A stretch of DNA of 46,452 nt from Acidobacteria bacterium AH-259-O06 (GTDB taxonomy: Bacteria; Acidobacteriota; UBA6911; RPQK01; JADFOI01): assembly GCA_027717865.1 (NCBI GenBank), contig JALLOM010000002.1, forward strand, positions 1 to 46,452. Direction: 5' to 3'. The translations under genes and the position numbers were made by a program. Shown here one piece after another: positions 1,770-16,749 of this stretch (position 1 is the first letter of the stretch; the number at the start of each line of letters is the position of its first letter). The notes under the pieces are model-generated. The model did no database searches. It saw only the letters and a program-made list of their open reading frames with translations, and was not told the DNA's origin.

Positions 1770-3437
1770 ATGAGGGGACAAAGAATTCGACCTGCTTCTC
1801 TGGTGCTACTGCTATATATCGCTGGGTTCGCTTGGCAACTGCAGGCACACGAGCACCACGGACATCGCGGGCCAACCTACGAGGTGCGCAAGTCGATCGA
1901 GATTAAGTCTGGTGAAAAAAAACTACAGCTAACCGTCATCGATCAGCAGACAGGAAAGCCGACGGCGGCGCGGTTCAGCTTGATGGTCAACGGCGCTTCG
2001 TACACTCCGCATGGGCTGGGTAAAAACGGTCTGCGATTCGTTTCGATTCACCAGGGAAGGGGACAACGGTTCGTGGCTCTCTACACGCGCGGCAGCGGGG
2101 ACGTGGAAGTGCCCTTACCTGCCAATGCGCGCGGCGGAGTTGTTTTGGTAACCAAAGGTTTCGACTTTTTTCCCGAGCAGATTTCCTTCGAGGTCAAAGG
2201 TGACACGGCTAAAGTGAACACCAAGTTGTGGCGGTGGACCGACATCCGAGCTCAAGGTTGGCTGCCGGCCGACGAGCATTTGCATTACGATCGCTTGGAT
2301 CCGGCGCACGACAAGGACTGGCTCACCATACTGGACGCCGATGGCCTGACGCACGCCCATTTCCTGGTGCTGAAGGGAGGCAACCTGCCGGGAGTGTGGG
2401 CCCGGCAATTCGCTCACGGAAAGGCAGGCGAGGTGGGGGATGGCCAGCGACTGATCCGTCCGGGCGAAGAGTACCGTGACGGTAGCCAAGGTCATATTAA
2501 CCTGCTCGGCATCGGCGAGGTAATTCTTCCGATTTCTACCGGTGGGATCGGCCGGCCGCAGATCGTATACAACTACCCTCCTCTGTACGATATCTTGCAG
2601 CGGACGCGAGCGGTTGGCGGAATCGGAGGACCAGCACACGGGGGCACCCTGTCGCGCAGCCCCACGGCTGTGCTGGATACGGTACTCGGCGGGGTGGACT
2701 TCTTTGAGCTCGCCAACACCCATCTGTATGAGGTGGACGTGTGGTACCGGCTGATGAACTGCGGTTATGTGGTCCCTCCCGCGGCAGGAACCGACTTGCC
2801 CAACTTCCCTTTCCGAGACAGCTGGCAGCCGCTGATGGGCGAGACACGCATGTACGTGCGTGTTGGCCCGAAGCAAGATTTCCCGTCTTGGAAAGAGGCC
2901 GTCCGCCGCGGCGAGGTATTTATTTCCAGCGGGCCCATCATCAAATTTGCTGCAGGCGGTGCTGAACCTGGCGGGGTGATCCAGCTGCCAGCAGTCGGGG
3001 GCGACGTCCTGTTAGAAGCGGAACTGGCCAGCCCTCGACACCTGCAGGCTCTGGAAATCGTTCACAACGGCACGGTGGTCACAGCGCCCATTCGGAAAAC
3101 AAACGACGGGCCGATCCACCGGTGGCGCATCCGTCAGCGCCTGCGGATAACCGAAAGCAGTTGGCTGGCGGCTCGTGGTGTGGGGGCGGCCAAGCGGGCA
3201 CTCGAGGAACATACCACGTTCAAGCGAAACGCCATTGCCCATACGGCGGCCATACGAGTGCTAGTGGGAGACCAGCCTATACGATCATCCCAGGACGCGA
3301 AGATTTTGTTGCGCCAATTAAGGGATCAGCAAGAATATTACCGTACCCAAGCCAAGTACGAACAGACCGAGCATCGTACACGCTTTTTGCAACTTTTTGA
3401 CAGCGCGATTGCGGAAATTAAGCGTCAAGCAAACTAA
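1770..3437 (+). CDS. Secreted metal-dependent hydrolase-like protein (PHP/amidohydrolase-like; function uncertain)
   Basis: 555 aa with an N-terminal signal-like segment (LVLLLYIAGFAWQLQA) and His-rich motifs (HEHHGH, ADEHLHYD, GGPAHGG). GC-rich codon usage matches the flanks. Its last 39 nt are repeated at 25630-25668. Confidence 0.75.
   Translation: MRGQRIRPASLVLLLYIAGFAWQLQAHEHHGHRGPTYEVRKSIEIKSGEKKLQLTVIDQQTGKPTAARFSLMVNGASYTPHGLGKNGLRFVSIHQGRGQRFVALYTRGSGDVEVPLPANARGGVVLVTKGFDFFPEQISFEVKGDTAKVNTKLWRWTDIRAQGWLPADEHLHYDRLDPAHDKDWLTILDADGLTHAHFLVLKGGNLPGVWARQFAHGKAGEVGDGQRLIRPGEEYRDGSQGHINLLGIGEVILPISTGGIGRPQIVYNYPPLYDILQRTRAVGGIGGPAHGGTLSRSPTAVLDTVLGGVDFFELANTHLYEVDVWYRLMNCGYVVPPAAGTDLPNFPFRDSWQPLMGETRMYVRVGPKQDFPSWKEAVRRGEVFISSGPIIKFAAGGAEPGGVIQLPAVGGDVLLEAELASPRHLQALEIVHNGTVVTAPIRKTNDGPIHRWRIRQRLRITESSWLAARGVGAAKRALEEHTTFKRNAIAHTAAIRVLVGDQPIRSSQDAKILLRQLRDQQEYYRTQAKYEQTEHRTRFLQLFDSAIAEIKRQAN
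3393..3431. repeat. Left copy of the 39-bp perfect direct repeat (putative attL core)
   Basis: ctttttgacagcgcgattgcggaaattaagcgtcaagca is identical to 25630-25668. A further 8 nt (aactaact, 3432-3439) match 25672-25679 after a 3-nt indel. Confidence 0.85.
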
Positions 3438-3879
3438 CTAGCCTCCATCCGGAAAGGGTTTTCTGACGCGCTATGTTGTTGAAAAGTAATGTAGTGCGAG
3501 GTTCGGGTATTAATTCAAGCCTCTCAGTAATTGACTCAAGAGAATTGATCTTGTCGCCTAAGGTATCTGTGAAGGAGTTTACACGTTCGTACAAAGGCAC
3601 CGGACCAGGTTGCATGACGAGAGGACGGTGGGTGTGGGAGTACTTATATTCCTCTGCCAGTGCCTCAGTCGAGAAGATTCTCTTCAGCATTTCCAGATTG
3701 AAGTCATCCCATTTACTCCGATCTGACTTGGCGGCCTTTAACTCCGTCTCATTTGTAATGTCTCGTTGCTCTAGCTCCCGACCTACCTCAATACGTTGCA
3801 ACAAAAGTTCAGTGGCTTCTTCTCTGGACAAAGTAAGTTCCGGTTGCTGCGCTGGCTTCGGAGTCTTTTTCCTTGGCAT
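3418..3879 (-). CDS. Hypothetical protein, basic N-terminus plus predicted helical/coiled-coil body
   Basis: 153-aa ORF, last gene of the XRE-ImmA unit and 138 nt downstream of ImmA. No family recognised. Its 3' end runs into the att-like repeat and overlaps the convergent gene by 20 nt. Confidence 0.6.
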   Translation of the reverse strand: MPRKKTPKPAQQPELTLSREEATELLLQRIEVGRELEQRDITNETELKAAKSDRSKWDDFNLEMLKRIFSTEALAEEYKYSHTHRPLVMQPGPVPLYERVNSFTDTLGDKINSLESITERLELIPEPRTTLLFNNIARQKTLSGWRLVSLLDA

Positions 3880-4017: not shown

Positions 4018-4899
4018 TCAACGTCGGAACCGGGGTTTCCAGGATTCCATCATCTCTTCCTCCTCCTGAATCTCCTCAAAGTCCGGAAGGTCCGTCGGCG
4101 TGAGCACTGTCAAGGTCCTACCGTAGCTTCCCAGACCAATGACTTCTTCAGTGGTCTCGATGTTGAATCGACTGCCGAACCAGTCCTGCAGGTTGGAGGT
4201 GCCGGCGGTACGATTTGCTGATTCGACACGATAGGGGTCCCGATTAAACCTAAACGTAGCACTGTCTTGAGGAAGAGCTTCACCCTTTCTAATCCATTCA
4301 AGGCCCTCAACCTCCTTCAGTGTATCGGACATGAAGCAATAGTTAACCCGGTCGCCAGCACTAACGATGATCGCCATCGCATCGCGGGTGCATTGTGTAT
4401 AACGGATCGCTGTCGCTGTCAGGGAAGTGACGCATAGTTCCGCAAGGCTCTCAATGGCCGCGAACCCCTCGCCGGCGCAGTCGATTGCATCCGTGAATAA
4501 CGGCGTTGGCATCAGCAGGTTGGCGGCGAAATGGTCAGCTTCTATTTCATACCGATCGTTGGACCTGAAACCGGCGTGCGACTCATGAAGGTCACAATCG
4601 CCAAGCACAGCGTCGATGTGACCGGGCAAAAAGTAGTGACCCAGCTCGTGTGCGACACTGAAGTTCTGGAATCCGAGATTGTTGATGTGCGTGGCGTAGG
4701 CAATTCCAAAGGCATTTCCTACGCGTAGCAACATGCCCGATATGCCTTCAGTGCTGGCTTCTTTCGCCATAACTTCGATGTTCAGCGAGCGAGCCAACGC
4801 GATCGGGTCCACAGGAAGCGTTGTGATACCGTGTTCTTTGACGACTTTTCTAGCTTCTAGGGTGGCCCGCCAGGAGGATTCGTCACGGTCGCGGTTCAT
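4018..4899 (-). CDS. ImmA/IrrE-family (COG2856) zinc metallopeptidase with a ~150-aa C-terminal extension
   Basis: 293 aa with the HEXXH motif HELGHYFLPGH. A 4-nt ATGA overlap (4896-4899) couples it to the upstream XRE gene, the classic XRE-COG2856 pairing. Confidence 0.88.
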   Translation of the reverse strand: MNRDRDESSWRATLEARKVVKEHGITTLPVDPIALARSLNIEVMAKEASTEGISGMLLRVGNAFGIAYATHINNLGFQNFSVAHELGHYFLPGHIDAVLGDCDLHESHAGFRSNDRYEIEADHFAANLLMPTPLFTDAIDCAGEGFAAIESLAELCVTSLTATAIRYTQCTRDAMAIIVSAGDRVNYCFMSDTLKEVEGLEWIRKGEALPQDSATFRFNRDPYRVESANRTAGTSNLQDWFGSRFNIETTEEVIGLGSYGRTLTVLTPTDLPDFEEIQEEEEMMESWKPRFRR

Positions 4900-5258
4900 T
4901 CGTCCTCCTTTTTTGTATTACCCTTTGCCTTGCTGGCCAGGAACTCCACGATCCCCTCCGCCATCTCACGGTCACCACTGCTTAGCTGATCAAGGTGTCG
5001 ATACAGCCTGTCGGCACTGGCCAGGTCCTGTGTCTCGTCCACACGCCCCAGCAGGTAATCAGTAGTAACGTCAAGGGCATCGGCCAGCCGTCGAAGATTG
5101 TCGAACGACGGCTTGCGGGTTCCGGTCTCAAAATGCGAGATAGCAGAGGCCTGGAGGTTTGCACGCTTCGCAAGCCCTTCCTGGCTCAACTCGCGTTTGG
5201 CCCGGGCAGAGCGCAGACGTTCTGGAAAAAGTTCAGTTGGTGGCCTTGACTTTTTCAT
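4896..5258 (-). CDS. XRE-family HTH transcriptional repressor (ImmR-like)
   Basis: 120 aa. The HTH_3 signature is LRSARAKRELSQEGLAKRANLQASAISHFETGTRKPSFDNLRRLADALDVTTDYLLG. Confidence 0.9.
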   Translation of the reverse strand: MKKSRPPTELFPERLRSARAKRELSQEGLAKRANLQASAISHFETGTRKPSFDNLRRLADALDVTTDYLLGRVDETQDLASADRLYRHLDQLSSGDREMAEGIVEFLASKAKGNTKKEDE

Positions 5259-5379
5259 TACGACTCCGTATAGTGATATATGACGACTTCGTAGACTTTC
5301 AGCGGCGTTTTTTTGCCGCCCATATAGACGAACACGTCAAATATTACATGACGAAATAGGAAAGTACAAGGAGGATTTG
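5259..5379. promoter_or_regulatory. Divergent promoter/operator region between XRE (-) and the DUF2188/Ubl operon (+)
   Basis: Near-identical 11-mers ACGACTCCGTA (5260-5270) and ACGACTTCGTA (5283-5293). A GACG-N4-CGTC palindrome lies at 5327-5338. An AAGGAGG RBS at 5368-5374 precedes ATG 5380. Confidence 0.4.
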
Positions 5380-5604
5380 ATGACGAAACGCAATCAACAC
5401 ATTGTTCCTCATGAAGGAGGGTGGGCCGTTAAGGGTGCGGGTAACCAACGCGCGACTTCAGTACACGACACCCAACAAGAGGCCATCGACGTCGGGCGCA
5501 AGATCGCCGGCAATCAGAGTACTGAATTGTTTATTCATGGCAGAGATGGACGCATCCGGTACCGCGATTCCCATGGAAATGATCCATTTCCACCGAAAGG
5601 CTGA
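5380..5604 (+). CDS. DUF2188 family small protein
   Basis: Strong RBS. The sequence HIVPHEGGWAVKGAGNQRATSVHDTQQEAIDVGRKIAGNQSTELFIHGRDGRIRYRDSHGNDPFPPKG matches the DUF2188 pattern from memory. Confidence 0.8.
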   Translation: MTKRNQHIVPHEGGWAVKGAGNQRATSVHDTQQEAIDVGRKIAGNQSTELFIHGRDGRIRYRDSHGNDPFPPKG

Positions 5605-5706: not shown

Positions 5707-5949
5707 ATGGAAGAACTTACTCTTGAAATTGCTACTCCTAAAGGGCTTTTTGTCGGAACGTTTTCCAAGACCACGAAAGTGGAAGAGGTGATCTCCACCG
5801 TCATCACCGAGAAAGGCCTAGATGGCGCTGACTCCCTCGAATTGATCCACAACGGAAACGTCTTGGAACCAGTTCAGCGACCTTTAGTTAGCTTCGGATT
5901 GGAGGGCACCGTTCAACTTGAACTTGTAGCTACAGGTTCCGGGGTCTGA
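5707..5949 (+). CDS. Ubiquitin-like beta-grasp protein (Ubl), C-terminus ..VATGSGV
   Basis: 80 aa with an alternating beta/alpha pattern typical of a beta-grasp fold and a Gly-containing tail. It sits first in a Ubl-E2-JAB-E1 operon. Confidence 0.65.
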   Translation: MEELTLEIATPKGLFVGTFSKTTKVEEVISTVITEKGLDGADSLELIHNGNVLEPVQRPLVSFGLEGTVQLELVATGSGV

Positions 5950-5956
5950 TTTTGCG

Positions 5957-6409
5957 ATGACCGTTACAGAACTCGTTTTTGCAGAACAGTTTGAACACCT
6001 ACGCGAAATAGTAGCCGCCCGGAACTGGGAGTTGGAGCAAGCCGACGGATCAAGTTTTATTTTGAGGCTTCAGGCCCGGGACAACTCCTATTTTTGGCTA
6101 AAGGTCGAATGCAATGATTATCCAGCTCAACCACCAGCTTGGCATTGGTATAATCCAGATACAGGAGCTCTCGACCAACCTCCAGATACGCCCCGAGGAA
6201 GTAATTTTTTCCACGGCTCTGGTCGCATCTGTGCTCCTTGGAACCGCTTAGCCTATAGCTCCTATGACCCCAATGGACCACACGGGGATTGGCAATTTGC
6301 CAACTGGATCACCAATGCAAAGACGGCCAGTTGTACAACACTCGCCGCTATGGCTCTCCGCTTGGCGGTCGAACTTCACAGCACTCGATTTCGGGGAAGA
6401 ATGAACTGA
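5957..6409 (+). CDS. E2-like (UBC-fold) ubiquitin-conjugating enzyme homologue
   Basis: 150 aa with a DYPAQPP flap motif and FFHGSGRIC(92)APW, placing the candidate catalytic Cys at 6230-6232. It starts 7 nt after the Ubl stop. Confidence 0.7.
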   Translation: MTVTELVFAEQFEHLREIVAARNWELEQADGSSFILRLQARDNSYFWLKVECNDYPAQPPAWHWYNPDTGALDQPPDTPRGSNFFHGSGRICAPWNRLAYSSYDPNGPHGDWQFANWITNAKTASCTTLAAMALRLAVELHSTRFRGRMN

Positions 6410-6411
6410 TC

Positions 6412-6933
6412 ATGTGGACCCGGATATTTCAATTACTATCCGGGAAACAGCCATATAAGCCAGGCCCGCCCGCACCGCCTCGGGTCGTTCTGACTGAGGC
6501 CTGCCTCCATGCACTCCAAGAGTGCTTGGCACCTGAGACCATCCGGGGACATGAAGGTATCGCCTATCTTGTCGGACAAAACAATGGGTACACTACCTTG
6601 GCAGCTGGTGCGATCCGTCCTCGTGCAAGAACGACAGAGGCTAGTTTTGAGGTGGATGCATCAGCTATGGCAAACGTTGTACGAACCGCTGTCACAAATG
6701 GTCTAGAAGTGGTAGGTCAAGTTCATACTCATCCCGGTCATGCGTACCACAGTGGTGGAGATGAAACAGGGGCTCGAATTGCATATTCCGGCTATGTATC
6801 CATCGTACTCCCTTACTATGGTCGACAATTACCGTCTCTGACTGGCATAGCTGCATATATGTACCGAACAGGAATTGGCTTTGTACCTGTTGATCTGGAG
6901 TGCATCATGGTCCTACACGCAACACTGAAATGA
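6412..6933 (+). CDS. JAB/MPN (JAMM) metalloisopeptidase, deubiquitinase-like
   Basis: Internal ATG 6412 lies 2 nt after the E2 stop. The catalytic Glu is in HEGIAYL and the metal site HTHPGHAYHSGGD lies at 6724-6762. Confidence 0.85.
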   Translation: MWTRIFQLLSGKQPYKPGPPAPPRVVLTEACLHALQECLAPETIRGHEGIAYLVGQNNGYTTLAAGAIRPRARTTEASFEVDASAMANVVRTAVTNGLEVVGQVHTHPGHAYHSGGDETGARIAYSGYVSIVLPYYGRQLPSLTGIAAYMYRTGIGFVPVDLECIMVLHATLK

Positions 6934-8282
6934 ACCACCAGGACTACCGAGCCGAGCGTGATGACCGGCTACTCCGTTATGCTGGCCGGCAGCTCGATCC
7001 CAACCGCTGGATTTGCTTGCGCGTAGACTCAGAGTACGTGAGCACATTCTCCGGACAAGCTGCCTTTCTTACTGCTGCTACCCTCTTAGGGCGGATGTCT
7101 CCCTCAGTCGCTCTTGATACTCCCAATGTACCTGTCATCGAGTCATTGCCCTGGCAGGCTCAAAATATTTGTGATCTAACCCTCAAGAGGTTATACGAAA
7201 GCGACCCCCACGGTAACTTTTGCGAACGACCGTTCCGGGATGAGGACTTTCTAATCCACTTAGGTTCTGAAGGTGCACCCAGTATAACTCATGGTATTGG
7301 ATGGTATGCCTATGTCGGGCCAGAACCATCGCCGATCCCAACCACAGTAGAAATAAATCCTGTTGGAGCGTGTTTGGCCGCTGTGATTGCTGCTGCACGC
7401 TTATTCGTCCATGATTTCAACTCTCCTTCCTTCACCCTTCTTCTTAACGCCTTTGACTGGTCGGACGCCTCTGGACATGTCGATTCAGTACCCCCCCTGC
7501 CCGGGACGTTGGACCTTGGAGACATCTGGATGGTCGGCACTGGATCGGTTGGCACGTCGATCCTGTTCTTCCTGACACTGTCCACACAAAATTTCTCGAC
7601 TACTCTATTTGACATGGATCAAGTAAAGCGACTCAATATTACAAGATCCCCGATCTTCACCGAAGATCACATAGGACTGGAAAAGGTTGAAGCTGCAAGG
7701 AAGTATCTCCACAACTGTGGTGTAACTTCCGTTCGGGCAGAACCGTGTCCCCTACATGAGTCGGCGATTTGGAAACAACGACAGACAGGAAGTCCGGATT
7801 TGCTGATTTCAGCCGCCAATGAATTGAACGTACGTCACGGAATCGAAAACCAATACCCCCCTATTCAGATCTATGGGACAACAGGTCAAAACTGGCAGGC
7901 AGCGACAATCCGTCACATTCCACTCCTTGACCCCTGCTCGGTATGTCTCTTTCCTAATACTGAGTACTCCAAAACACTTTGCGCCACCGATACAAACCAA
8001 CGATCCACGGATCTAGACAACGAACAAGTAGATGCAGCGCTACCCTTTTTGTCATTCGCTGCTGGTCTTATGGCAACGGCTGAAATTTTAAAACTTACAC
8101 TACCGGAGTATCCGTTTTTACCAAACCGCACCTTCTTAAACACACTTCCAGAGCCACGATTTGTCTCCGCCTCCATGAAATCTCGGAAGGGGTGCCTCTG
8201 CACAAAAAGGAGCAATTCAATTCACTCTAAGTTACTTGCCGGCTCCCGCTTCGCCCATCTGTCGGCAAGGCAAAGGGATTGA
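6930..8282 (+). CDS. E1-like ThiF/MoeB-family adenylyltransferase (N-terminal inactive-like plus C-terminal active Rossmann domain)
   Basis: ATG 6930 overlaps the JAB stop (ATGA). Motifs are GTGSVG (7536-7553), FDMDQV, NITR, and the Cys clusters CSVC and CLC. The track start at 6900 is GTG. Confidence 0.85.
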   Translation: MNHQDYRAERDDRLLRYAGRQLDPNRWICLRVDSEYVSTFSGQAAFLTAATLLGRMSPSVALDTPNVPVIESLPWQAQNICDLTLKRLYESDPHGNFCERPFRDEDFLIHLGSEGAPSITHGIGWYAYVGPEPSPIPTTVEINPVGACLAAVIAAARLFVHDFNSPSFTLLLNAFDWSDASGHVDSVPPLPGTLDLGDIWMVGTGSVGTSILFFLTLSTQNFSTTLFDMDQVKRLNITRSPIFTEDHIGLEKVEAARKYLHNCGVTSVRAEPCPLHESAIWKQRQTGSPDLLISAANELNVRHGIENQYPPIQIYGTTGQNWQAATIRHIPLLDPCSVCLFPNTEYSKTLCATDTNQRSTDLDNEQVDAALPFLSFAAGLMATAEILKLTLPEYPFLPNRTFLNTLPEPRFVSASMKSRKGCLCTKRSNSIHSKLLAGSRFAHLSARQRD

Positions 8283-8581
8283 TCGAGCCTTACCCTGGCA
8301 GTTAGGTTGGTCCTGGGGTATTATTTTCATCCTGATAGTGTGAACGACAACAAGACACTGTTAGAGACGTTTGACCCGCACAGGATTCCCAATCCTGTGC
8401 GTTATTGTGCGAACGTCAACGGACGCGGCCTTTCGACAAGATTGTGCCTAGAATGTACCCGTAACCTTAGTGGGATTGAAATGTCCCGCGAGAGAAGAGG
8501 AGAGGGAGACACTAATCTTTTGGCGCAATCCAGTGGGACAGTCGCACATGTTCCAAACCCTTCCCCATCAGATGTAAGTGA

Positions 8582-8952
8582 AGATACTGGGGACAGAGTT
8601 TTCTGCCTCTATACGCCTACGGCACCGCGGACCCCTCGGCCGACGTGGCCACACAGGCGCACTTTGCCGAGGAACTGGCGTCATACCTCGAAACGGTTCC
8701 GGAAAGCGCCACACTGGGCGACTGGGCCCCCGTGTACGGGGAGCTTCTCACCTTCGACGACCCGGCGCGGCATCCCGCCTTCCCGCCATAGACCACCTGG
8801 AGGGCTTCCATCCTGGAGAGCGGAGCCTTTACAGCCGTATGCTTGTGCCGGTTCACGCCAGGGAGAGCATCGTCTTGGCATGGCTCTATGTTGGTGGTCA
8901 GCAGGTTGAAGGTCAGATAGTCCGAACCGGCAAGATTCGCTGGAAAAGTTAG
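8582..8952 (+). pseudogene. Possible frameshifted gene remnant, unassigned
   Basis: The stretch from 8582 to ~8770 has no start codon but looks coding (..YAYGTADPSADVATQAHFAEELASYLETVPESATLGDWAPVYGELLTFDDPARHPAFPP*). A second frame then continues (DHLEGFHPGERSLYSRMLVPVHARESIVLAWLYVGG..). A reverse-strand ORF also overlaps, so the call cannot be resolved by eye. Confidence 0.2.
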
Positions 8953-9159
8953 AGTCAATCGGTTAAATTAGGTTAAACTTGCCATACACTCGGAAAAACC
9001 GCTTGATGATGGGTCTTCTTCTGATATATTTTAGCCCTGTTTATCCTGGTTTGTCAGGATGAAAGGCCTCAAAGGCTGAACCATGGCAAACCTATCCATG
9101 AACCGATAGTAAGAGGCCGCTGCGAGACAACCTATGGCGCTAGGCGTGAGTGGAGACAA

Positions 9160-9366
9160 ATGATGGAAGATCGATGGCTCTCCGTGGATGAGATTGCAGA
9201 CCATCTCGGTATCAAACGGGACACGGTCTACAAGTGGATTAGTGAACGGCAAATGCCAGGACACAAAATCGGTCGACTCTGGAAGTTCAACCAAATGGAC
9301 GTCGATGAGTGGGTGCGTGGTGGAGGTGCCGACGACAAAAGACGCCAAAAGAAAACAGACCGGTAG
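9160..9366 (+). CDS. Excisionase/MerR-like HTH (HTH_17) DNA-binding protein
   Basis: 68 aa. LSVDEIADHLGIKRDTVYKWISERQMPGHKIGRLWKFNQMDVDEWV is the Xis/AlpA-type signature. It is the first gene of the BREX-like operon. Confidence 0.8.
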   Translation: MMEDRWLSVDEIADHLGIKRDTVYKWISERQMPGHKIGRLWKFNQMDVDEWVRGGGADDKRRQKKTDR

Positions 9367-9368
9367 GA

Positions 9369-10796
9369 ATGGTAAGCAGCAATATGGCAGAAAAAGGAAA
9401 AACAGGACACAGACAAAGACTCAGAGACCGCTTCTTAGCGGGCGATGCGGAGTCACGCTCTGATGAAATGTTGCTGGAACTGCTTCTTACCTTTGCTACC
9501 GGCCGCAAGGATGTCATGCCGCTCGCTCAAGAGCTTATTCGGGTCTTTGGCAGTCTTTCCCAGGTTCTTTCCGCCTCCCATGATGAACTATGTAAGGTGA
9601 AAGGAATGGGGCAGTCATCAACTACCTTGCTCAAGGTGGTTGATTTCATTCAATCAGGGACCACGTCCACCACAACAAGACCTTCACTTCCGAAAGGGGC
9701 AGCAGGAGCTACTCAGCAGAAGTCGTTTGAGAACCTGCCGGTTGAACAAACCCCAGATCAATCGTCTTCCAATACCGTAAACAAGAAACCGGTGGAGTCG
9801 AAAGAGCCTTCTGTCTCGGACAAGCAACCAGTAAAAGAGGATGGTACTTCAACGGGTTCTATCGTGGCAGATATACCTACAGCGCCTCAGCGTTCATCGC
9901 GATCTTCAAAGAAACAACCCGCAGCCAAAAAGAGCACTCGACGGAAATTTCAAGTCAGCAATGGCTACTTTCTGGAATTTGACCAACTTGCTCGCATTCT
10001 TCATTTTCTCATGGAACATCGGGACGCAAAAAAGATTAATCGCAAGACTCTGCAGGAAGCTACCGGCCTGGCAGATCGACAGGTGGAGAGCCTGGTCAGT
10101 ATGGGAGCGGCGATGGGCTTAATCACGCCAGGCCGCCAGGTACTGACTCCCGTGGGATTGCTTATCGCAGAACAAGACATTTTCATTGAAAAGAGAGGTT
10201 CTCTTGAATGGTGTCATTACGTCGGTGCCGGCTCCTTTCGGAATCTAATCTGGTTTGAGATCTTCAATCGTCTGCTGGCGGAAGCATCACCAATGACACA
10301 GGAGGAATGGAACGAACGGATGCGGAGCGATTTGGCCGGCAAATATTCCAAGCGAACTATCGGCAAGGGGCTTTACGAAGAGGTTCGCTTTGTAATCGAT
10401 GCCTATATGGAACGTAATTTCAGCAAACTGGAACTTCTGCATCGGTCGTCCGACGAACGGCTTTACCGTCGCCGCTACACCCAATTCGCCCCTCTTGTTC
10501 TCAGCGCCATGATCTATGATTTCTGCGCCACAAAAGAGACTCATCTTTCCCAGGTTGGCGAGATGGCGGTCACGCCTGGTTCTCCGGCTGTGGTCTTCGG
10601 GCTTGATGCCGCTTCGTTCCGACAGCAGATCGAAGGGCTTCACGACCGTGGCTGGCTGCGGTACGAAACCACGCACAATCTCGATCAAGTCCGTCTCAAA
10701 CCGGGTTTTTCGGCGCTCGAGTTCCTTACTGCGCATTTTGAAGACCGTGAGCCGCGCGAAGATAGCAAACCATCACCTGGAGGCATTTTTCAATGA
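9369..10796 (+). CDS. Fusion protein: RadC-N-terminal (UPF0758 HhH) domain, ~110-aa disordered S/T/P/K linker, and a ~270-aa C-terminal wHTH-containing domain of unrecognised family
   Basis: ATG 9369 lies 2 nt after the HTH stop. The N-terminus HRQRLRDRFLAGDAESRSDEMLLELLLTFATGRKDVMPLAQELIRVFGSLSQVLSASHDELCKVKGMG matches the RadC N-terminus. No JAB domain follows. Confidence 0.7.
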   Translation: MVSSNMAEKGKTGHRQRLRDRFLAGDAESRSDEMLLELLLTFATGRKDVMPLAQELIRVFGSLSQVLSASHDELCKVKGMGQSSTTLLKVVDFIQSGTTSTTTRPSLPKGAAGATQQKSFENLPVEQTPDQSSSNTVNKKPVESKEPSVSDKQPVKEDGTSTGSIVADIPTAPQRSSRSSKKQPAAKKSTRRKFQVSNGYFLEFDQLARILHFLMEHRDAKKINRKTLQEATGLADRQVESLVSMGAAMGLITPGRQVLTPVGLLIAEQDIFIEKRGSLEWCHYVGAGSFRNLIWFEIFNRLLAEASPMTQEEWNERMRSDLAGKYSKRTIGKGLYEEVRFVIDAYMERNFSKLELLHRSSDERLYRRRYTQFAPLVLSAMIYDFCATKETHLSQVGEMAVTPGSPAVVFGLDAASFRQQIEGLHDRGWLRYETTHNLDQVRLKPGFSALEFLTAHFEDREPREDSKPSPGGIFQ

Positions 10797-11257
10797 GCGG
10801 TCCTGTCAACATGGTTCAACTCGTGAGAGATTTGCCCTCCCGTCCCCGTGGAAGAGCTTGCATTGTCCTCACCCATGAGTATGGAGGCCAAAAAGAGTGG
10901 GCGGCGGAGTTGGCCCGCCAGACGGACTCCGAGCACCTCGACCTGCTGGAACTTTTCGCACAAGACAAAAAACTCAGCGGCAAGATTGGGCAGTTCCTGA
11001 TCCCCAGCCTTTTTGAGTTCTTGAAGAACCATGGCCAAGCCTCTGTTTTGGTTATTTCAGGTATGGAGTTCCTCAAGGCCACATGGGCCGGCCAATCGAA
11101 TGTCGTCGAACAGTTCGCCAGCCATGTGGAGACTTGGGACCAGAAGCCCTGCCTGCTCTTTGTTCTTCAATACGACAAGATCATCGCGACTCGCGAGTAT
11201 CGACGCTATCGTCAGTACACCTTTGTGGTCGATCAGAAGGAAACACTGGCACTATGA
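10793..11257 (+). CDS. Small 154-aa protein in the BrxB/BrxF position, with a degenerate P-loop-like segment
   Basis: ATGA overlaps at both ends (10793, 11254). CIVLTHEYGGQKEW sits where a Walker A would be, and VLVISGMEF resembles a Walker-B strand without the acidic pair. Confidence 0.6.
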   Translation: MSGPVNMVQLVRDLPSRPRGRACIVLTHEYGGQKEWAAELARQTDSEHLDLLELFAQDKKLSGKIGQFLIPSLFEFLKNHGQASVLVISGMEFLKATWAGQSNVVEQFASHVETWDQKPCLLFVLQYDKIIATREYRRYRQYTFVVDQKETLAL

Positions 11258-14200
11258 AGAATAACGGCCTGTTCAGCTCGCTTTTCATCGAGGAATTGAA
11301 AGACAGCGTCAAGCTCGACGACGCGGCCCAAGGCCGCATGGCCACACTGGCTCAGACATGGCGTACTCGCAACACCCAGGATACCGAGTCCCTGTGGGAG
11401 TCTTTCCTGAAACAGGCGTTGAGCTATCTTGAGTTCGTTCCACCCGGAAATCCAACCGCTCCAGGCGTTTACCCGCTTTATGAAGACTGGAGGTTCACAG
11501 ATTGCATCAGCGTCCTCTACCTCGCTCCGCCCGGATCGGACATTGACAATACATCAGTCGGAAATTTCTATCCCGCCAAACTTCTTGCGCGGCTTAAGGG
11601 ACGAAAACTCAACTGGGGAATTCTGACTGACGGTGCCAGCTGGCGGCTTTACTCCACCAAGAGTTCCAGACCATACGAAGATTATGTGGAACTTCCGTTA
11701 GAGGAAGCTTTGGAAGGATCGGATGAGGCCGAATACGGCCTTTTTGAGCGCTTCTTTCACAAGGATTCCTTCATTGCCGAAGAAACTGAGGGTACAGAGT
11801 ACGGGCAACAGGATGAATCCACCGCTATCTACAAGTGCCGCCTTGACCGCGACCGGGAGCAATCGGAACAGGTCCTCGATGAAGAGGTCAAAGCGCCGTT
11901 CCTTGCTCAGGTGGACGAGGTGCTGCAGTACATCTGCAACGGGTTCATTGTGGACACGCAAAAGAGCGGCGAAGAATACACGGAAGAGGAGCGAGGGGAA
12001 ATATTCGAAAGCGCCGCCAAACTGATCTACCGCTGCTTGTTCCTGTTCTATGCCGAGGCCCGCAGGCTGCTGCCGTCAGACCCGGACAAAGCCGATCTCT
12101 ACCGGCGGCACTCCGTGCAGGCGCTCTGCGAGGAGGCCCGCAAGTTCCGCTGGGGTGAACGCCGCGACACGGACCAGTATGATCTTTGGAAGCACCTGAA
12201 AGGCCTGATAAACGCCGTAAACGATGGTGACCCGGAATACGGCATCATGGGTTACAACGGCGGTTTGTTTGATGATGAAGAAGAGCGGTTCCTGGGGCAA
12301 CATCAACTGCGCAACGATTTTCTGTGCCGGGCGCTGTACCTGCTGGCGTTTGTGGAACCTTACGACAACGAACCGGACGAAGAATACGCCATACCGTACG
12401 AAGACCTGGAGGTTCGCCATCTCGGGGAGCTTTACGAGAACATACTGGAATACACGGTTCAGCTTGCCGACGCCGACCGCATCCGTCGCCGCACCAAAAA
12501 GGGTGTGGAAATGCTGTTGGTCTCCCAGACAACGAAAAAGACGGGTGACACGCTGATCAAAAAGGGAGATGTCTATTTCGGCGAGTCCGCGCTTGAGCGC
12601 AAACAGACGGGTTCCTATTACACTCCGGAATCACTGGTTCGCTTTCTCAATGAAAAAACAATCGTCCAGCCCCTTCGTGAAACCTTTGAACGGGAATACC
12701 GACAGCGATTCAAGGAGCTCCTGGAACAGGCCAGCAACGGACACGATGCCGGCACCCGTCGTGGGGCGGCCCAATCGGCTGCGGCACTTGTCGAGCGTTT
12801 TGTCGAAGAGGGGGTTCTAAACTTCAAGGTCTGCGATCCGGCCATGGGCAGCGGTCATTTTCTGGTGGATGCGGCCAACCAGATGGCCGGGCTGGTTGTT
12901 GCCCTGCTTGAGGAAGTGCCCCATGTCGAGGGGATAACGGTTTCGGTCACCAGTCGTCCCAACGACTGGCGGCGGCGTATCACCCGCCACTGCATCTACG
13001 GGGTCGATCTCAACCCGCTGGCTGTAAACCTGGCCAAGCTCTCGCTCTGGCTCAACTGCTTTGCCATCGAACATAAGCTGACCTTTCTCGATCACCATGT
13101 TCGCTGTGGAAACAGCCTGATCGGCATTCGATCACTCGATCAGCTTGCTTCCGTCCCGGAGCGCAAGAAAGAGAGCAAGAAAAAGAAAGACCCGCAAAGA
13201 CTGCTCTTTGATTACAACGATCTCTCGTCTGTCTTGACGGAGGCGGCCCAGAGAATTGCGTCTATTACTCAGATCGATGAGGACGACACCGATACCCAGA
13301 AGGCTGTTTTGGATGAAGCCCTGGAGGCCACATCCAACCTGCGCCCCCTGGCCGACCTGTACACGGCCTATCTGATGGACCCCGACATTCCAGTCGGCGA
13401 TTACAAGGAGATTTTCGAACGGCTTGCAAAGGGTAAGTCTGTCGCCAACACCCTGAATCCTGCCCTTCCTGAGATTCTGGAATCGGTAGATGCATATCGC
13501 GACTGGCACCACGTTTACCACTGGCCGCTGGAGTTTCCCGACGTGTTCGGTCCGGATGCGGTGGGCGGGTTCTCGGCAACCGTCGGCAATCCGCCGTGGG
13601 ATACCGTCTTACCCAACTCGCAGGAGTTTTTCTCAGCCTACGATCCTAAATTTCGCTCTTACAGAAAGCAGCAGGCCAAGCGAGTAGCTAAAATGCTAAT
13701 GAAAGATAACCCTGCTATTGCGAAAAAATGGGAGGACTGCGGAAACATGTTCTCCCAGCAAATCGCATATTTCAAGGAACCCATCAATTATAGCTCCATT
13801 GGGAAAATACACATCAATACTTATAAGCTCTTCCTGGAAAAGTTTTTCACTGTGCTTTGTAGTGGTGGCCGTATGGGCATAGTGGTACCCAGCGGTCTCT
13901 ACACCGACCAGGGCTGCGAACCTCTGCGGGAAGGGTTCTTCAATCAGAGTCGTATCGAGTTTCTCTACTGCTTTGAGAACCGCTGGCCTACTGTCTTCAC
14001 CGCCGTGGATGGCCGTTTCAAGTTCGTTACCTTCGGCACCCAAAAAGGCGGAAAAACCGACCGGTTCAAGTGTGCTTTCATGGAGCACGACCCGGAACGG
14101 CTGCCCATTATCGACGCGAGTGCTCTGCAATTGACATTCGAACAGGTCAGGAAATTATCCCCCGACACTTTAAGCATAATGGAGTTTGACAACGAGAGAG

Positions 14201-15180
14201 AGATAAACATTGCAGCAGCGATATATCACGATAATCCGCTCCTTGGAAACTACCTCAAAGCTAATTGGCAGTCAGCCTTTCAAGACGAGTTCAACATTAC
14301 ACATGATACTGAATTGTTTTTGACTGAAGAAGAGTGTTCAGGGGCAGATGTAACTCCGTTGTGGGAAGGAAAGGAAATCTGGATATTGACTAATGAGTTT
14401 GCTGCACCAACAAGATGGATGCTTCGGTCAAACACAAAGATAAAGCCAACAACTCAACATACCAGAGTGGTATACAGATCAGTAGCTTCGAACACAAACG
14501 AGCGGACATTGGTTCCTGCTATTATTCCCGCGAGCTTCCCCACAGGTAATTCTGTTGATGCGTGTCCTCTTCTCCCATCTGTTGCCATAAAGGTTGCCGT
14601 TATCACAGGATCTTTCGTGATAGATTGGATTCTTCGAAAGAAGGTCACGACAAATTTAAACAAATTCATCACCGCACAATTACCCATATTGGAAGAACTA
14701 AAGGACAACAATGCACCGAATATATTCGACTTGATCTTAGCGATGGGTAGTCGCCTGATATGTACGTCTTCAGCCTTCTCTACAATCTGGAATGATTGTT
14801 ACTCACAGAAATGGAATAACCAAGAATTCTGGTATGACAGCAATGCCCCCATCGACAGCTATGGCCCGGCCCACGAGCAGGAGATCCGCCGCTGCTTGCG
14901 GGACGAAGCCAAAAACCTGACTCCCGAATGGGGCCCACACTGCGGGGTGCATGATCGACTTCCCGACCGACGGGACACCGGTGACAGAGCTCAACTCCGT
15001 GCCGAGATCGACGCTTACGTGGCCCACCTTTACGATCTTTCGCGGGATGACTTCGCTTACATCCTTGACACCTTTCCGGTGCTCAAAAAGAAAGAGAAAA
15101 AGGCCTTCGGCGAGTTCATGTCCAAGCGCAAATGCCTGGAAGAATACGACCGGATAGGGAAAATTATGAATGCGGAATGA
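11254..15180 (+). CDS. pglX: BREX PglX-like N6-adenine DNA methyltransferase (Eco57I/type IIG-like architecture, no nuclease motif seen)
   Basis: ATG 11254 overlaps the upstream stop. Motifs are ILTDGASWRLY, YYTPESLV, motif I DPAMGSGHFL (12835-12864), motif IV NPPW (13588-13599) and the C-terminal tail AEIDAYVAHLYDLSRDDFAYILDTFP. Confidence 0.88.
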   Translation: MKNNGLFSSLFIEELKDSVKLDDAAQGRMATLAQTWRTRNTQDTESLWESFLKQALSYLEFVPPGNPTAPGVYPLYEDWRFTDCISVLYLAPPGSDIDNTSVGNFYPAKLLARLKGRKLNWGILTDGASWRLYSTKSSRPYEDYVELPLEEALEGSDEAEYGLFERFFHKDSFIAEETEGTEYGQQDESTAIYKCRLDRDREQSEQVLDEEVKAPFLAQVDEVLQYICNGFIVDTQKSGEEYTEEERGEIFESAAKLIYRCLFLFYAEARRLLPSDPDKADLYRRHSVQALCEEARKFRWGERRDTDQYDLWKHLKGLINAVNDGDPEYGIMGYNGGLFDDEEERFLGQHQLRNDFLCRALYLLAFVEPYDNEPDEEYAIPYEDLEVRHLGELYENILEYTVQLADADRIRRRTKKGVEMLLVSQTTKKTGDTLIKKGDVYFGESALERKQTGSYYTPESLVRFLNEKTIVQPLRETFEREYRQRFKELLEQASNGHDAGTRRGAAQSAAALVERFVEEGVLNFKVCDPAMGSGHFLVDAANQMAGLVVALLEEVPHVEGITVSVTSRPNDWRRRITRHCIYGVDLNPLAVNLAKLSLWLNCFAIEHKLTFLDHHVRCGNSLIGIRSLDQLASVPERKKESKKKKDPQRLLFDYNDLSSVLTEAAQRIASITQIDEDDTDTQKAVLDEALEATSNLRPLADLYTAYLMDPDIPVGDYKEIFERLAKGKSVANTLNPALPEILESVDAYRDWHHVYHWPLEFPDVFGPDAVGGFSATVGNPPWDTVLPNSQEFFSAYDPKFRSYRKQQAKRVAKMLMKDNPAIAKKWEDCGNMFSQQIAYFKEPINYSSIGKIHINTYKLFLEKFFTVLCSGGRMGIVVPSGLYTDQGCEPLREGFFNQSRIEFLYCFENRWPTVFTAVDGRFKFVTFGTQKGGKTDRFKCAFMEHDPERLPIIDASALQLTFEQVRKLSPDTLSIMEFDNEREINIAAAIYHDNPLLGNYLKANWQSAFQDEFNITHDTELFLTEEECSGADVTPLWEGKEIWILTNEFAAPTRWMLRSNTKIKPTTQHTRVVYRSVASNTNERTLVPAIIPASFPTGNSVDACPLLPSVAIKVAVITGSFVIDWILRKKVTTNLNKFITAQLPILEELKDNNAPNIFDLILAMGSRLICTSSAFSTIWNDCYSQKWNNQEFWYDSNAPIDSYGPAHEQEIRRCLRDEAKNLTPEWGPHCGVHDRLPDRRDTGDRAQLRAEIDAYVAHLYDLSRDDFAYILDTFPVLKKKEKKAFGEFMSKRKCLEEYDRIGKIMNAE

Positions 15181-15183
15181 TGA

Positions 15184-16641
15184 ATGATGAATTTTAAAGA
15201 ATTAAAAGACATCATCGCGCGGGGTGAAGGTGAGCAGGTAGAGTTTAAACGTTCCACCGGCCAGCGAACCAGTGCGGCCAAGGCAGTCTGTGCCATGCTC
15301 AACGGAATTGGCGGATTTGTCGTGTTCGGTGTAACTGACAGGGGCAAGATTGTTGGACAGCAGGTAAGTGCCGGGACGCTTGAAGATATTGCTGCGGAAC
15401 TCAGGGAAATAGAGCCCCCCGCTTTTCCTGACATTGAAACCGTGGCCTTGAAGCAAGGAACCTCTGCTGTTGTGCTGACAGTCCCGGGGGGAGGGGGACC
15501 TTTTACTTTTGACGGACGGCCTTATCTCCGTCAGGGACCGACAACGATTATGATTCCGCGTGAAGAATACGAACGGAGGCTTGTGGAGCGACTTCATGCC
15601 ACGCGGCGCTGGGAGAATGAGCCGGTGCCGGAGGGCGTTTCCATCAAGGATCTGGATGCCGACGAGATTCAAATTACTCTGGACAATGCTATTCGGCTGG
15701 GACGACTCGAAGCCACTGACCGGCGAGACACCAGATCCATTCTCCGTGGTTTGGAACTGATTCACGAAGGCAATCTCCTGAACGCCGCAATAGCGCTTTA
15801 TGGCAAGACCGACCGTCTCAAGACGCTTTATCCGCAGATGGGTATTCGTCTGGCCCGTTTCCGTGGAAAAAACCGACTGGCCGATTTCTCAGACAACCGC
15901 CAATACTGGGGGCACGCCTTTGCACTCCTGCGCCGGGCTGAATCTTTCCTGATGGATCATGTCCCCATAGCCGGGCGGGTTCTGCCGGGGAAAATGGTCC
16001 GCGAAGACCAGCCCTGGTATCCGCCAGGCGCCACACGCGAAGCCCTGGCCAATGCCATTTGTCACCGCGACTACACGATACCGGGCGGTGCCGTGGCCCT
16101 CGCCATGTACGACGATCATCTGGAAATAACCAATCCCGGCGCCCTGCACTTCGGCATCACACCGGAAAAGCTGGCCAAACCCCATGAATCCAAACCGTGG
16201 AACCCTATTATTGCCAATGTCTTTTACCGGGCAGGCATTATCGAGCGCTGGGGCACCGGCACGCTGAACATTATTGACTGGTGCGAGGAAAACGGCAACC
16301 CCGAACCCACCTGGCAGGAGCAGGCCGGTTCTGTGTATGTGAAGTTCCTGCCCGCCGTTTTGCCCGATACTCCGGAAGACACAGGGGATGTTGGGACCAA
16401 GTTGGGACTAAGTCGGGATCAAGTTCAAATCATCCGCAACCTTCTGAATGATAAAGCTATTACGGATTTGATGGAACTTCTGGGACGAACAAACCGGACC
16501 AAGTTCAGGGACCAAGTTCTTAACCCCCTAATCAAGACGGGGTTTGTAGAAATGACCATCCCGGACAAACCCCGCAGCAGCAGGCAAAAATACCGACTTA
16601 CGGACAAAGGCAGAGAATCGTTGAGGGTAATACTTCCATGA
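15184..16641 (+). CDS. AlbA_2 (Schlafen-like) plus HATPase_c_4 plus C-terminal wHTH protein ('putative DNA-binding/ATP-binding' family)
   Basis: Motifs are EGEQVEFKRS (AlbA_2) and NAICHRDYTIPGGAVALAMYDDHLEITNPG (HATPase_c_4). It starts 3 nt after the pglX stop. Confidence 0.82.
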   Translation: MMNFKELKDIIARGEGEQVEFKRSTGQRTSAAKAVCAMLNGIGGFVVFGVTDRGKIVGQQVSAGTLEDIAAELREIEPPAFPDIETVALKQGTSAVVLTVPGGGGPFTFDGRPYLRQGPTTIMIPREEYERRLVERLHATRRWENEPVPEGVSIKDLDADEIQITLDNAIRLGRLEATDRRDTRSILRGLELIHEGNLLNAAIALYGKTDRLKTLYPQMGIRLARFRGKNRLADFSDNRQYWGHAFALLRRAESFLMDHVPIAGRVLPGKMVREDQPWYPPGATREALANAICHRDYTIPGGAVALAMYDDHLEITNPGALHFGITPEKLAKPHESKPWNPIIANVFYRAGIIERWGTGTLNIIDWCEENGNPEPTWQEQAGSVYVKFLPAVLPDTPEDTGDVGTKLGLSRDQVQIIRNLLNDKAITDLMELLGRTNRTKFRDQVLNPLIKTGFVEMTIPDKPRSSRQKYRLTDKGRESLRVILP

Positions 16642-16656
16642 ATAAGCAACCGTTTA

Positions 16657-16721
16657 CGAGCGGAAAAAGCGCTAAATATATGCGCGCTCATAAATCTTTC
16701 GAGCGCGCACGTAATCGCTCG
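16657..16721. promoter_or_regulatory. Paired GC palindromes flanking an AT-rich box in the only real intergenic gap of the operon (possible internal promoter/operator)
   Basis: CGAGCG at 16657-16662 and 16700-16705. Complements CGCTC at 16685-16689 and CGCTCG at 16716-16721. TAAATATAT lies between them. Confidence 0.3.
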
Positions 16722-16749
16722 TATCTTTGAACGGTGGAATGAGAACAAC

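Follow-up and report, generated by a model that had tools for sequence, protein, structure and literature searches.

What kind of conjugation system is encoded by the four-gene operon near one end of contig JALLOM010000002.1 from Acidobacteria bacterium AH-259-O06, and does it belong to one of the known Bil types? To our knowledge, it was not until 2023–2024 that ubiquitination-like systems of bacteria were shown to function, and studies have covered only two Bil types. The operon was identified in a stretch of 46,452 nucleotides, referred to here as the window, and all coordinates below are positions in this window. It spans positions 5707–8282 on the plus strand and consists of four co-directional genes that encode a ubiquitin-like protein (Ubl), an E2, a JAB peptidase and an E1. 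Here we establish its gene content, the folds of its products, their conserved catalytic residues, the family to which it belongs and its association with regulatory genes. An initial annotation, made from the DNA letters and a list of open reading frames (ORFs), had compared the operon with BilABCD and had given reasons for its novelty which are already in the literature. What it missed is the real distinction: the operon falls in neither of the characterised Bil clades, and its E1 is built differently. The lineage also has a capped Ubl and a near-obligate CapH/CapP switch. The comparisons described below suggest a conserved and widespread lineage that is homologous to BilABCD and stands outside both characterised Bil types. 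We consider it probable that the region encodes a DNA-damage-inducible Ubl conjugation system of the Bil kind that represents a third lineage beside Types I and II.

A Ubl-E2-JAB-E1 operon related to BilABCD

The Ubl gene (5707–5949; 80 amino acids, aa) is followed by the E2 gene (5957–6409; 150 aa), the JAB gene (6412–6933; 173 aa counted from the ATG at 6412) and the E1 gene (6930–8282; 450 aa counted from the ATG at 6930). The ORF list and the sequence gave the same layout as had been described initially, with a 7-nt gap between the Ubl and E2 genes (5950–5956), a 2-nt gap between the E2 and JAB genes (6410–6411) and an ATGA overlap of the JAB and E1 genes (6930–6933). The lengths of homologues (80–82 aa for the Ubl, 147–152 aa for the E2 and about 445 aa for the E1) favour the shorter starts over the longest ORFs, and the N-terminal alignment of the E1 also backs the chosen start codon. 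In the source record the E1 gene call is a 299-aa product starting from the GTG at 7383, so the predicted N-terminal inactive adenylation domain (6930–7382) is unannotated there. The four-gene operon is real, as its gene order recurs far beyond chance.

The JAB protein scored above the cut-off of the Pfam family Prok-JAB (30.9 bits; cut-off 25), and a sequence search of the PDB matched it to BilC from Ensifer (8TYX_B; 5.2e-11). The structures used for Type II Bil (CEHH/6C operons) are those of Ensifer aridi TW10 (8TYX, 8TYY, 8TYZ and 8TZ0). The profile of the JAB family aligned with BilC of NGR234 at an hhalign probability of 99.2, and the PADLOC BilC model scored 48.7 bits (1.4e-13). The JAMM isopeptidase signature reported in the initial annotation was confirmed; it comprises Glu48 in HEGIAYL (6553–6555) and HTHPGHAYHSGGD, that is H105-x-H107...S114-x2-D117, at 6724–6762. 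Residues E48, H105, H107, S114 and D117 are in register with the catalytic residues of BilC, including its E33 and D106. In an Acidobacteriaceae genome (L012:5434–7365) JAB and E1 lie in a single 643-aa ORF, which reflects either a gene fusion or an artefactual frameshift where the ATGA overlap normally lies.

For the Ubl and the E2, sequence and profile matches were weak or insignificant, and their folds were therefore decided by structure prediction. The AlphaFold2 model of the Ubl, made from an alignment of 40 homologues, had a predicted local distance difference test (pLDDT) value of 90.5 and gave 383 Foldseek matches at E ≤ 1e-3. Template modelling (TM) scores of 0.78–0.83 were obtained with ubiquitin variants, the Caldiarchaeum ubiquitin, SUMO, NEDD8 and the C-terminal domain of ISG15 in the PDB, and neither ThiS nor MoaD was among the best 50 Foldseek matches. 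In hhalign comparisons the Ubl family aligned with ubiquitin at a probability of 85, and its alignments with Type II BilA and with SUMO1 were insignificant. The Ensifer BilA chains were not retrieved by a sequence search of the PDB with the Ubl. According to the model, the Ubl is a single ubiquitin-type beta-grasp, in agreement with the 80-aa beta-grasp-like protein proposed at first. Such a short single domain had been called unusual; in fact, a single beta-grasp Ubl is present in 105 of 134 (78%) Type II Bil operons (PMC11601603), and single-Ubl subtypes of the ISG15-like system had already been noted by Millman et al. (10.1101/2022.05.11.491447). Some published Ubls carry fused DUF1508/YegP domains (PMC11601603). 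Among 1.84 billion representative proteins, a search with a Ubl profile picked up only 143 relatives, most of them 80–100 aa long.

The Ubl ends in VATGSGV, where the codon of Gly79 (5941–5943) is followed by that of Val80 (5944–5946), a one-residue cap. A G-x-G-[VA] end is near-invariant in two alignments of 36 and 40 homologues, with G77 and G79 invariant in the latter, and the consensus end of the family (LVATG-x-G-V, sometimes with A as the last residue) is kept in tandem, coiled-coil-extended and three-domain variants. The Type II BilA of Ensifer likewise has one residue past its glycine, and in its Gly97-Ala98 end the alanine is trimmed by BilC (PMC10557695). The near-invariant Gly-x-Gly-Val end implies that the JAB would trim one residue, here a predicted cleavage between Gly79 and Val80. 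A metagenome scaffold (L049:6001–9087) carries an operon of the same family in which the Ubl has three beta-grasps; its domains 1 and 2 strongly match Type I BilA (134 bits), its domain 3 is of the family type and ends in ATGSGV, and its E2, JAB and E1 are 43–46% identical to the window proteins.

The E2 model, also from an alignment of 40 homologues, had a pLDDT of 94.2 and values of at least 87 throughout. Its best PDB matches in Foldseek were the Ensifer BilB chains 8TZ0_C/D and 8TYZ_C (TM 0.65, probability 0.96–1.00), followed by Rad6. The model thus makes the E2 a UBC-fold conjugating enzyme that is closest to BilB in structure, as expected from the UBC-like E2 of the initial annotation. 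Cys92 (codon TGT, 6230–6232) lies within an invariant ICAPWNR, His109 (6281–6283) follows 17 residues later, and the flap reads YPxxPPAW. In two alignments, of 37 and of 40 homologues, C92, H109 and P59 are invariant; His86 is nearly so. The PADLOC BilB model matched the E2 with 22.9 bits (1.4e-5). Alignments of the E2 family with UBE2D2 and with Type II BilB in hhalign were insignificant, the Ensifer BilB chains were not retrieved by a sequence search of the PDB, and the Pfam families Prok-E2_A to Prok-E2_E gave no match to the window proteins at E ≤ 1. The CEHH spacing (C-x5-E-x-H-x4-H) is not found in the window E2, where Leu, Tyr and Pro occupy positions +6, +8 and +13 relative to Cys92.

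The E1 matched Pfam ThiF (46.9 bits; cut-off 28.1) and, over residues 29–306, the PADLOC BilD model (32.8 bits, 7.3e-9). Its family aligned with the Type II BilD of pNGR234a at an hhalign probability of 97.9 over residues 26–342, covering both adenylation domains up to the CxxC motif; the homologues carry Pfam BilD_N (PF27312). The Ensifer BilD chains were not retrieved by a sequence search of the PDB. On these alignments, the E1 would be composed of an inactive adenylation-like N-terminal domain (residues ~1–190) and an active ThiF-type domain, which fits the two-domain ThiF/E1 suggested initially. On the plus strand, GTGSVG is at 7536–7553, Asn297-Glu298 at 7818–7823, CSVC (C336 and C339) at 7935–7946 and CLC (C422 and C424) at 8193–8201, the four cysteines of the last two being predicted zinc ligands. 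Cys351 (7980–7982) is the candidate catalytic residue, as judged from its alignment column. Across 26 sequences C336, C339, C422 and C424 do not vary, and conservation of C351 reaches at least 90%; GxGxxG, D228/D230, N236, R239 and K252 are invariant in the family alignment.

The motifs listed in the initial annotation for the E2, the JAB and the E1 are therefore all where it had placed them, and the beta-grasp, UBC, JAMM and ThiF/E1 folds that it expected were all recovered by Pfam or by AlphaFold2 and Foldseek. The order Ubl-E2-JAB-E1 is that of BilABCD, as it had pointed out, and homology is indicated by the PADLOC models, the match to BilC 8TYX, the hhalign comparisons and the E2 model. 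Because folds, motifs and profile alignments agree, we regard the four genes as a complete set homologous to BilABCD.

Position relative to the Type I and Type II Bil systems

The operon was compared with reference copies taken from annotated plasmids, namely with Type II references from pNGR234a (L047) and Rhizobium sp. BT04 and two divergent copies, and with Type I references from Xanthomonas pXCV183 (L052), Rhizobium pRL11 (L051), Variovorax (L053), Roseovarius and Cupriavidus, the Type I operons being located via the BilA-like N-terminus of P0410. Three further loci (L039, L040 and L042) were considered as Type I and rejected, as they score only 16–66 bits on PADLOC BilD. True Type I members score 191–210 bits on PADLOC BilA, 200–210 on BilB, 204–221 on BilC and 577–580 on BilD, whereas the window proteins gave no match to BilA and the far lower scores given above for the other three models. 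Similarly, Pfam DUF7665 (BilB-like, the Type I BilB) gives 230 bits for a true member and 20.2 for the window E2, under its cut-off of 27. Among the Type II families, DUF2604 (the Ubl; 121 bits in NGR234) and Prok-E2_C (the E1 N-terminus; 258 bits in NGR234) had no match in the window, and neither had Metal_CEHH (the E2; 327 bits for NGR234 BilB) at E ≤ 1. In pairwise BLAST the window E2, JAB and E1 were 23–30% identical to those of both types, the E2 being nearer to Type I and the JAB and E1 slightly nearer to Type II, and the window Ubl gave no significant alignment with either the Type I or the Type II Ubls.

Neighbour-joining distance trees of the E1, the E2 and the JAB (a numpy implementation with 200 bootstraps) placed the family outside both characterised Bil clades. 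The family was monophyletic in 200 (E1), 200 (E2) and 135 (JAB) of the 200 replicates. For Type I the values were 200, 200 and 200, and for Type II 194, 199 and 183. A split between the family, together with L039, L040, L042 and the haloarchaeal L059, and Types I and II taken together appeared in 199, 188 and 194 replicates, respectively. The trees agree with the independent evidence from the hidden Markov models (HMMs).

In the E1, C336, C339, C422 and C424 align with Cys340, Cys343, Cys491 and Cys493 of the Type II E1 of NGR234, and the column of Cys351 corresponds to Cys417 of Type II and to Cys385 of Type I, whose exchange in Type I BilD (C385A) abolished defence (10.1101/2022.05.11.491447). 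Both Bil types are described as an inactive adenylation domain, an active adenylation domain and a CYS domain, with a CYS insertion (PMC11601596). In the window E1 only 11 residues separate C339 from C351, whereas the insertion at the same point is about 70 residues in Type II and 20–25 in Type I, and the alignment shows no mobile alpha-helical CYS domain in its crossover loop. As the CxxC and CxC motifs are present and the insertion is absent, the family E1 appears to pair the zinc brace of Type II with a cysteine on a bare crossover loop.

A second peculiarity of this E1 is an invariant ANE (Asn297-Glu298), which two independent alignments place at the Asp column of Type I (DN) and Type II (DT/DS). 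In E1/ThiF enzymes that conserved aspartate coordinates Mg-ATP. Asn-Glu is found at the same column in the sister group formed by L039, L040 and L042.

With Type II Bil the operon shares the gene order, a single beta-grasp Ubl with one residue past the conserved glycine, a JAB that is ~30% identical with identical JAMM spacing, the pair of inactive and active adenylation domains, the CxxC in the crossover loop with the CxC near the C-terminus and, for part of the Type II operons, a divergent CapH/CapP pair upstream. In contrast to Type II, its E2 is of 150 aa rather than 205 aa, has no long loop and is not Metal_CEHH; its E1 has neither the ~70-residue CYS domain nor a match to Prok-E2_C and has Asn-Glu at the position of the Mg-binding aspartate; its Ubl is not DUF2604; and a CapP-like gene is upstream in ~80% of the family loci, compared with 15% for Type II.

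The likeness to Type I (the system of Collimonas sp. OK412) lies in the gene order and the protein sizes (E2 ~155, JAB ~165 and E1 ~455 aa), in the E2, which is closest by sequence (BLAST 1e-5 to 1e-6, with a weak match to DUF7665), and in the E1, whose N-terminal domain matches PADLOC BilD and Pfam BilD_N and whose catalytic cysteine column is common to both. One family member, L049, has two Type I BilA-like domains in its Ubl. On the other hand, Type I Ubls have two beta-grasps and end in Gly, whereas the window Ubl has one and ends in Gly-Val, and Type I E1s have no zinc cysteines and have the insertion of 20–25 residues before the catalytic cysteine. The Type I copies fetched sit behind a UvrD-like helicase, not behind CapH/CapP. 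In L051, L052, L053 and L057 the Type I operon lies directly 3′ of this co-directional helicase gene (~1100 aa where the whole gene was covered), and at two of those loci a LuxR-type regulator and a small ORF stand ahead of the helicase.

Protein searches placed the relatives in no fewer than 369 clusters for the E1, where the search was limited in its candidates, 328 for the Ubl and 342 for the E2. Among the best 120 listed for each protein, identity to the window proteins was 48–80% and nearly all were unnamed or hypothetical; NCBI labels the Ubl and the E2 of relatives as hypothetical. A search with the E1, keeping one genome per species, identified 46 loci from Alpha- and Gammaproteobacteria, Acidobacteria, Nitrospirae, a Leptolyngbyaceae cyanobacterium and Dehalococcoidia. 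E2, JAB and E1 are in identical order at 37 of them, and a Ubl ORF was found in all but one of these 37. At the other nine (among them L032, L035, L038, L041 and L043–L046) there are only E1 fragments with the other three genes missing, which suggests frequent decay of the system. Viral contigs yielded a single, weak E1 relative, which led us to discount a phage-borne origin. The four-gene order was also seen on haloarchaeal plasmids, such as that of Natrinema zhouii (L059:2148–4910), with an 86-aa Ubl, a 158-aa E2, a JAB and a 477-aa E1, and in H17 and H19. The E1 of these plasmids is 27–30% identical to the window E1 and branches with the family and not with Type I or Type II.

CapH/CapP-like regulators, proposed function and alternative readings

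Two genes on the minus strand diverge from the operon and share its control region. The first (4018–4899) encodes a 293-aa CapP-like metallopeptidase of the ImmA/IrrE (M78) kind, matched by Pfam Peptidase_M78 (1e-11) and over its full length by PADLOC capP (4.2e-63, 211 bits); the second (4896–5258) encodes a 120-aa CapH-like XRE repressor with a helix-turn-helix (HTH) domain, matched by Pfam HTH_3 (5.9e-15) and PADLOC capH (6.1e-24, 83 bits). The first gene past the divergent promoter on the plus strand (5377–5604) encodes a 75-aa DUF2188 protein (Pfam 6.3e-26), for which no PDB relative was found by sequence; phmmer did not find this gene in the 46 related loci. The Pfam and PADLOC matches bear out the DUF2188 gene and the HTH and M78 pair that had been reported upstream. 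The pair had been regarded as an unusual ImmR/ImmA-type switch; in fact it is CapH/CapP, a known regulator of Bil, CBASS and DUF2188 operons. In Type II Bil, 15% of the operons have it upstream, in divergent orientation (PMC10557695), and Lau et al. described its mechanism as a DNA-damage regulator and listed CapP and CapH operons that contain DUF2188 proteins (10.1101/2022.04.27.489752). The full-length model matches, the divergent orientation and the DUF2188 neighbour all resemble the modules of that study, and nothing distinctive was detected.

The association recurs in the family. A Pfam scan of 132 upstream ORFs from 34 family loci found 24 HTH_3 and 20 Peptidase_M78 proteins, and with iterated local HMMs a CapP-like gene was found within 3 kb upstream at 27 of the 34 loci and both genes at 23. 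Most of the pairs are divergent, three are co-directional and six are fused in one ORF. These fused HTH-M78 ORFs, of ~380–400 aa, are found at L013, L016, L017, L019, L021 and L025.

In the following scheme, the individual biochemical steps, their sequence and the role against phage are all taken by analogy with characterised systems. CapH would repress the divergent promoter until, upon DNA damage or phage infection, CapP activated by single-stranded DNA cleaves it, whereupon the DUF2188, Ubl, E2, JAB and E1 genes would be transcribed as one unit. The JAMM peptidase would remove Val80 from the Ubl and expose Gly79, which the C-terminal adenylation domain of the E1 would adenylate, and the Ubl would then form a thioester with Cys351, presented on a short zinc-braced crossover loop rather than on a mobile CYS domain. 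From there it would be passed to Cys92 of the E2 and conjugated to lysines of its targets without a separate E3, and the JAB would probably also reverse the conjugation. Going by Type I Bil, phage structural proteins would be the likely targets, with defective virions as the result.

Could the operon instead be a plain member of the Type I or Type II clade, with the same architecture? The gene order is the same and the proteins are homologous, single-domain Ubls and CapH/CapP occur commonly in Type II, whose E1s also have the zinc CxxC and CxC, and Pfam BilD_N and BilB-like match family members. Nevertheless we consider this quite improbable, given PADLOC scores of 23–49 bits in the window against 191–580 in true Type I operons, the same gap on DUF7665, the lack of any match to Metal_CEHH, Prok-E2_C or DUF2604, an E2 without the CEHH spacing, identities of only 23–30% to both types, trees that separate the family from both in 188–200 of 200 bootstraps, and an E1 without the CYS insertion attributed to both types (PMC11601596). 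An older class appears far less probable still, be it one of the classes 6a–6e of Iyer, Burroughs and Aravind, Bub/6E or CBASS Cap2/Cap3. Class 6d comes to mind as it has a standalone small Ubl, a JAB, an E1 and an E2 with a histidine C-terminal to its cysteine (PMC1779556), which recalls His109 in the window E2, 17 residues past Cys92, but the Prok-E2_A to Prok-E2_E families find nothing here, and 6d was set aside on gene content, as there is neither a gene for a fifth, alpha-helical protein nor a JAB-N domain. Class 6b and CBASS are excluded because E1 and E2 are unfused and no CD-NTase (cGAS/DncV-like nucleotidyltransferase) is present: CBASS Cap2/Cap3 operons have an E2-E1 fusion with a CD-NTase, whereas here the two enzymes are separate with no nucleotidyltransferase nearby, and of the window E1 only the ThiF core is matched, weakly, by the PADLOC models for E1-E2 proteins. 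The candidate catalytic cysteine on the crossover loop is a likeness to Cap2, ATG7 and MoeB-like enzymes (10.1101/2022.03.31.486616 for Cap2 and ATG7); however, these are homodimers of one adenylation domain, whereas the family E1 would have its inactive domain in cis, and, unlike in Cap2 and its kin, the E2 is separate and the substrate is a dedicated Ubl and not a CD-NTase. Bub (6E/DUF6527), as described in PMC11601596, has an E1 and an E2 without catalytic cysteines, fused proteins and BubE (DUF6527); it was excluded because the window proteins, which are separate, keep the E1 and E2 cysteines and because the flanking ORFs scanned matched no Pfam family at all. A sulfur-carrier or cofactor/siderophore module of the ThiS/MoaD-ThiF/MoeB-JAB kind, in which JAB, E1 and a small beta-grasp also occur together (PMC1779556), would agree with the weak NCBIfam ThiF, MoeB and UbaA matches of the E1, but is largely refuted and hardly credible: those scores are all far under their cut-offs (e.g. 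29 against 275 bits), an E2 with an invariant cysteine is present, the E1 has a BilD-like inactive N-terminal domain and no rhodanese domain, the best 50 matches of the Ubl are of the ubiquitin/SUMO/NEDD8 kind and not ThiS or MoaD, and there are no adjacent metabolic genes.

As for function, the main rival to an anti-phage role is that the Ubl conjugation works, but primarily on host proteins in a response to DNA damage or stress, a possibility that has also been put forward for Bub operons. CapH/CapP respond to DNA damage in general (10.1101/2022.04.27.489752) and the CapP-like gene recurs at 27 of the 34 family loci; some relatives lie among housekeeping genes (L063); and in E. coli, Ensifer BilD and BilB attach the Ubl to cellular proteins without specificity (PMC10557695). 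We find this rather unlikely, since a BREX-like cluster with BrxL as well as toxin-antitoxin genes lie on the flanks of the window operon, relatives adjoin toxin-antitoxin modules, insertion sequence elements, integrases and defence-type ATPases, the distribution is sporadic and mobile with loci of E1 fragments, as is typical of defence genes, and the only functionally tested relatives, those of Type I Bil, are anti-phage. The defence-gene and mobile neighbourhoods, the E1-fragment loci and the tested function of Type I would thus favour an anti-phage role for the window operon as well.

Several points weigh against reading the operon as a third, DNA-damage-inducible Bil lineage with an anti-phage role. 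Its E2 is compact and lacks the long disordered loop that is the proposed target recogniser in Type II BilB. The two-domain pseudo-dimer of the E1 is predicted from profile alignment, and Asn297 at the position of the Mg-binding aspartate implies that the adenylation chemistry could differ or be weaker. Conjugation, trimming of Val80, the thioester on Cys351 and phage defence are extrapolated by analogy for the whole clade, and Bub operons, which are under the same CapH/CapP regulators, are without shown phage defence (PMC13373217), a point that also speaks for the stress role. The trees are simple distance trees, computed from highly divergent sequences and few references. In addition, current Pfam marks many family E1s as BilD_N, often weakly, and some E2s as BilB-like, also weakly, which implies that curators already group the family with Bil and that their models reach it at the margins. 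The single-Ubl subtypes of Millman et al. may include this clade; no description of a Type III Bil or a like lineage was found in the literature searched, which did not extend to the supplementary lists of earlier surveys.

With these points in mind we suggest, tentatively and at somewhat less than even chance, that the family is a Type III Bil that is at least as abundant as Types I and II and occurs in many phyla, has sister groups on haloarchaeal plasmids, has an E1 that is an evolutionary intermediate, is hard-wired to CapH/CapP and has an obligatory maturation of its Ubl. If so, the eukaryote-like fused inactive and active domains and the zinc brace would precede the mobile cysteine domain, the E1 cysteine being still on a bare loop like that of Cap2, ATG7 and MoeB and Asn-Glu replacing the Mg-binding aspartate, and the hard-wiring to CapH/CapP and the obligatory one-residue maturation imply that the family could differ from Types I and II in its trigger and its targets. 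Such an E1 would test whether a tandem-domain E1 preceded the mobile cysteine domain, a question that bears on the canonical E1s of eukaryotes. With a Ubl of 80 aa, an E2 of 150 aa and an E1 of 450 aa without a CYS domain, the operon offers a minimal and probably tractable model. There is also a gain for annotation, as models of the PADLOC type score the window proteins only weakly; if the family is only a divergent Bil, better models for finding such operons would be the practical gain.

Neighbouring genes and further features of the window

The initial annotation had placed the operon in an island that also carries BREX. BrxL is clearly present (441 bits in PADLOC), but PglZ, BrxC and the methylase match weakly or are nearer to the Ssp, DISARM or type IIG models, so that the cluster, at 9309–25219, is better described as atypical and BREX-like. 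PglZ scores 29 bits, the large ATPase resembles SspC more than BrxC, the methylase has its nearest matches in the DrmMI and type IIG models, and the first gene encodes a DUF4007 protein (BrxP/SspB-like). Inside the cluster, a gene at 15184–16641 combines SLFN/AlbA_2, HATPase_c_4 and Fic-like_C domains, and L049 has such a gene near its operon.

Consensus scans picked out, as pattern matches only, a sigma-70-like promoter candidate (TTGACT-17-TATAGT, 10/12) at 5246–5274 on the plus strand, within the control region shared by the operon and its divergent regulators, and, 95 nt past the E1 stop codon, a terminator-like hairpin with an 11-bp stem at 8377–8401 on the same strand. Rfam and tRNA scans of the window gave no matches. 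The ~880 bp past the E1 (8283–9160) have no convincing gene; a 200-aa ORF at 8307–8909 is without a Pfam match.

On the other side of the regulators, two ORFs adjoin the capP-like gene, one of 555 aa on the plus strand (1770–3437) and one of 153 aa on the minus strand (3418–3879), and neither has a Pfam or PADLOC match. A protein with a MazE-like antitoxin domain is encoded at 1202–1657.

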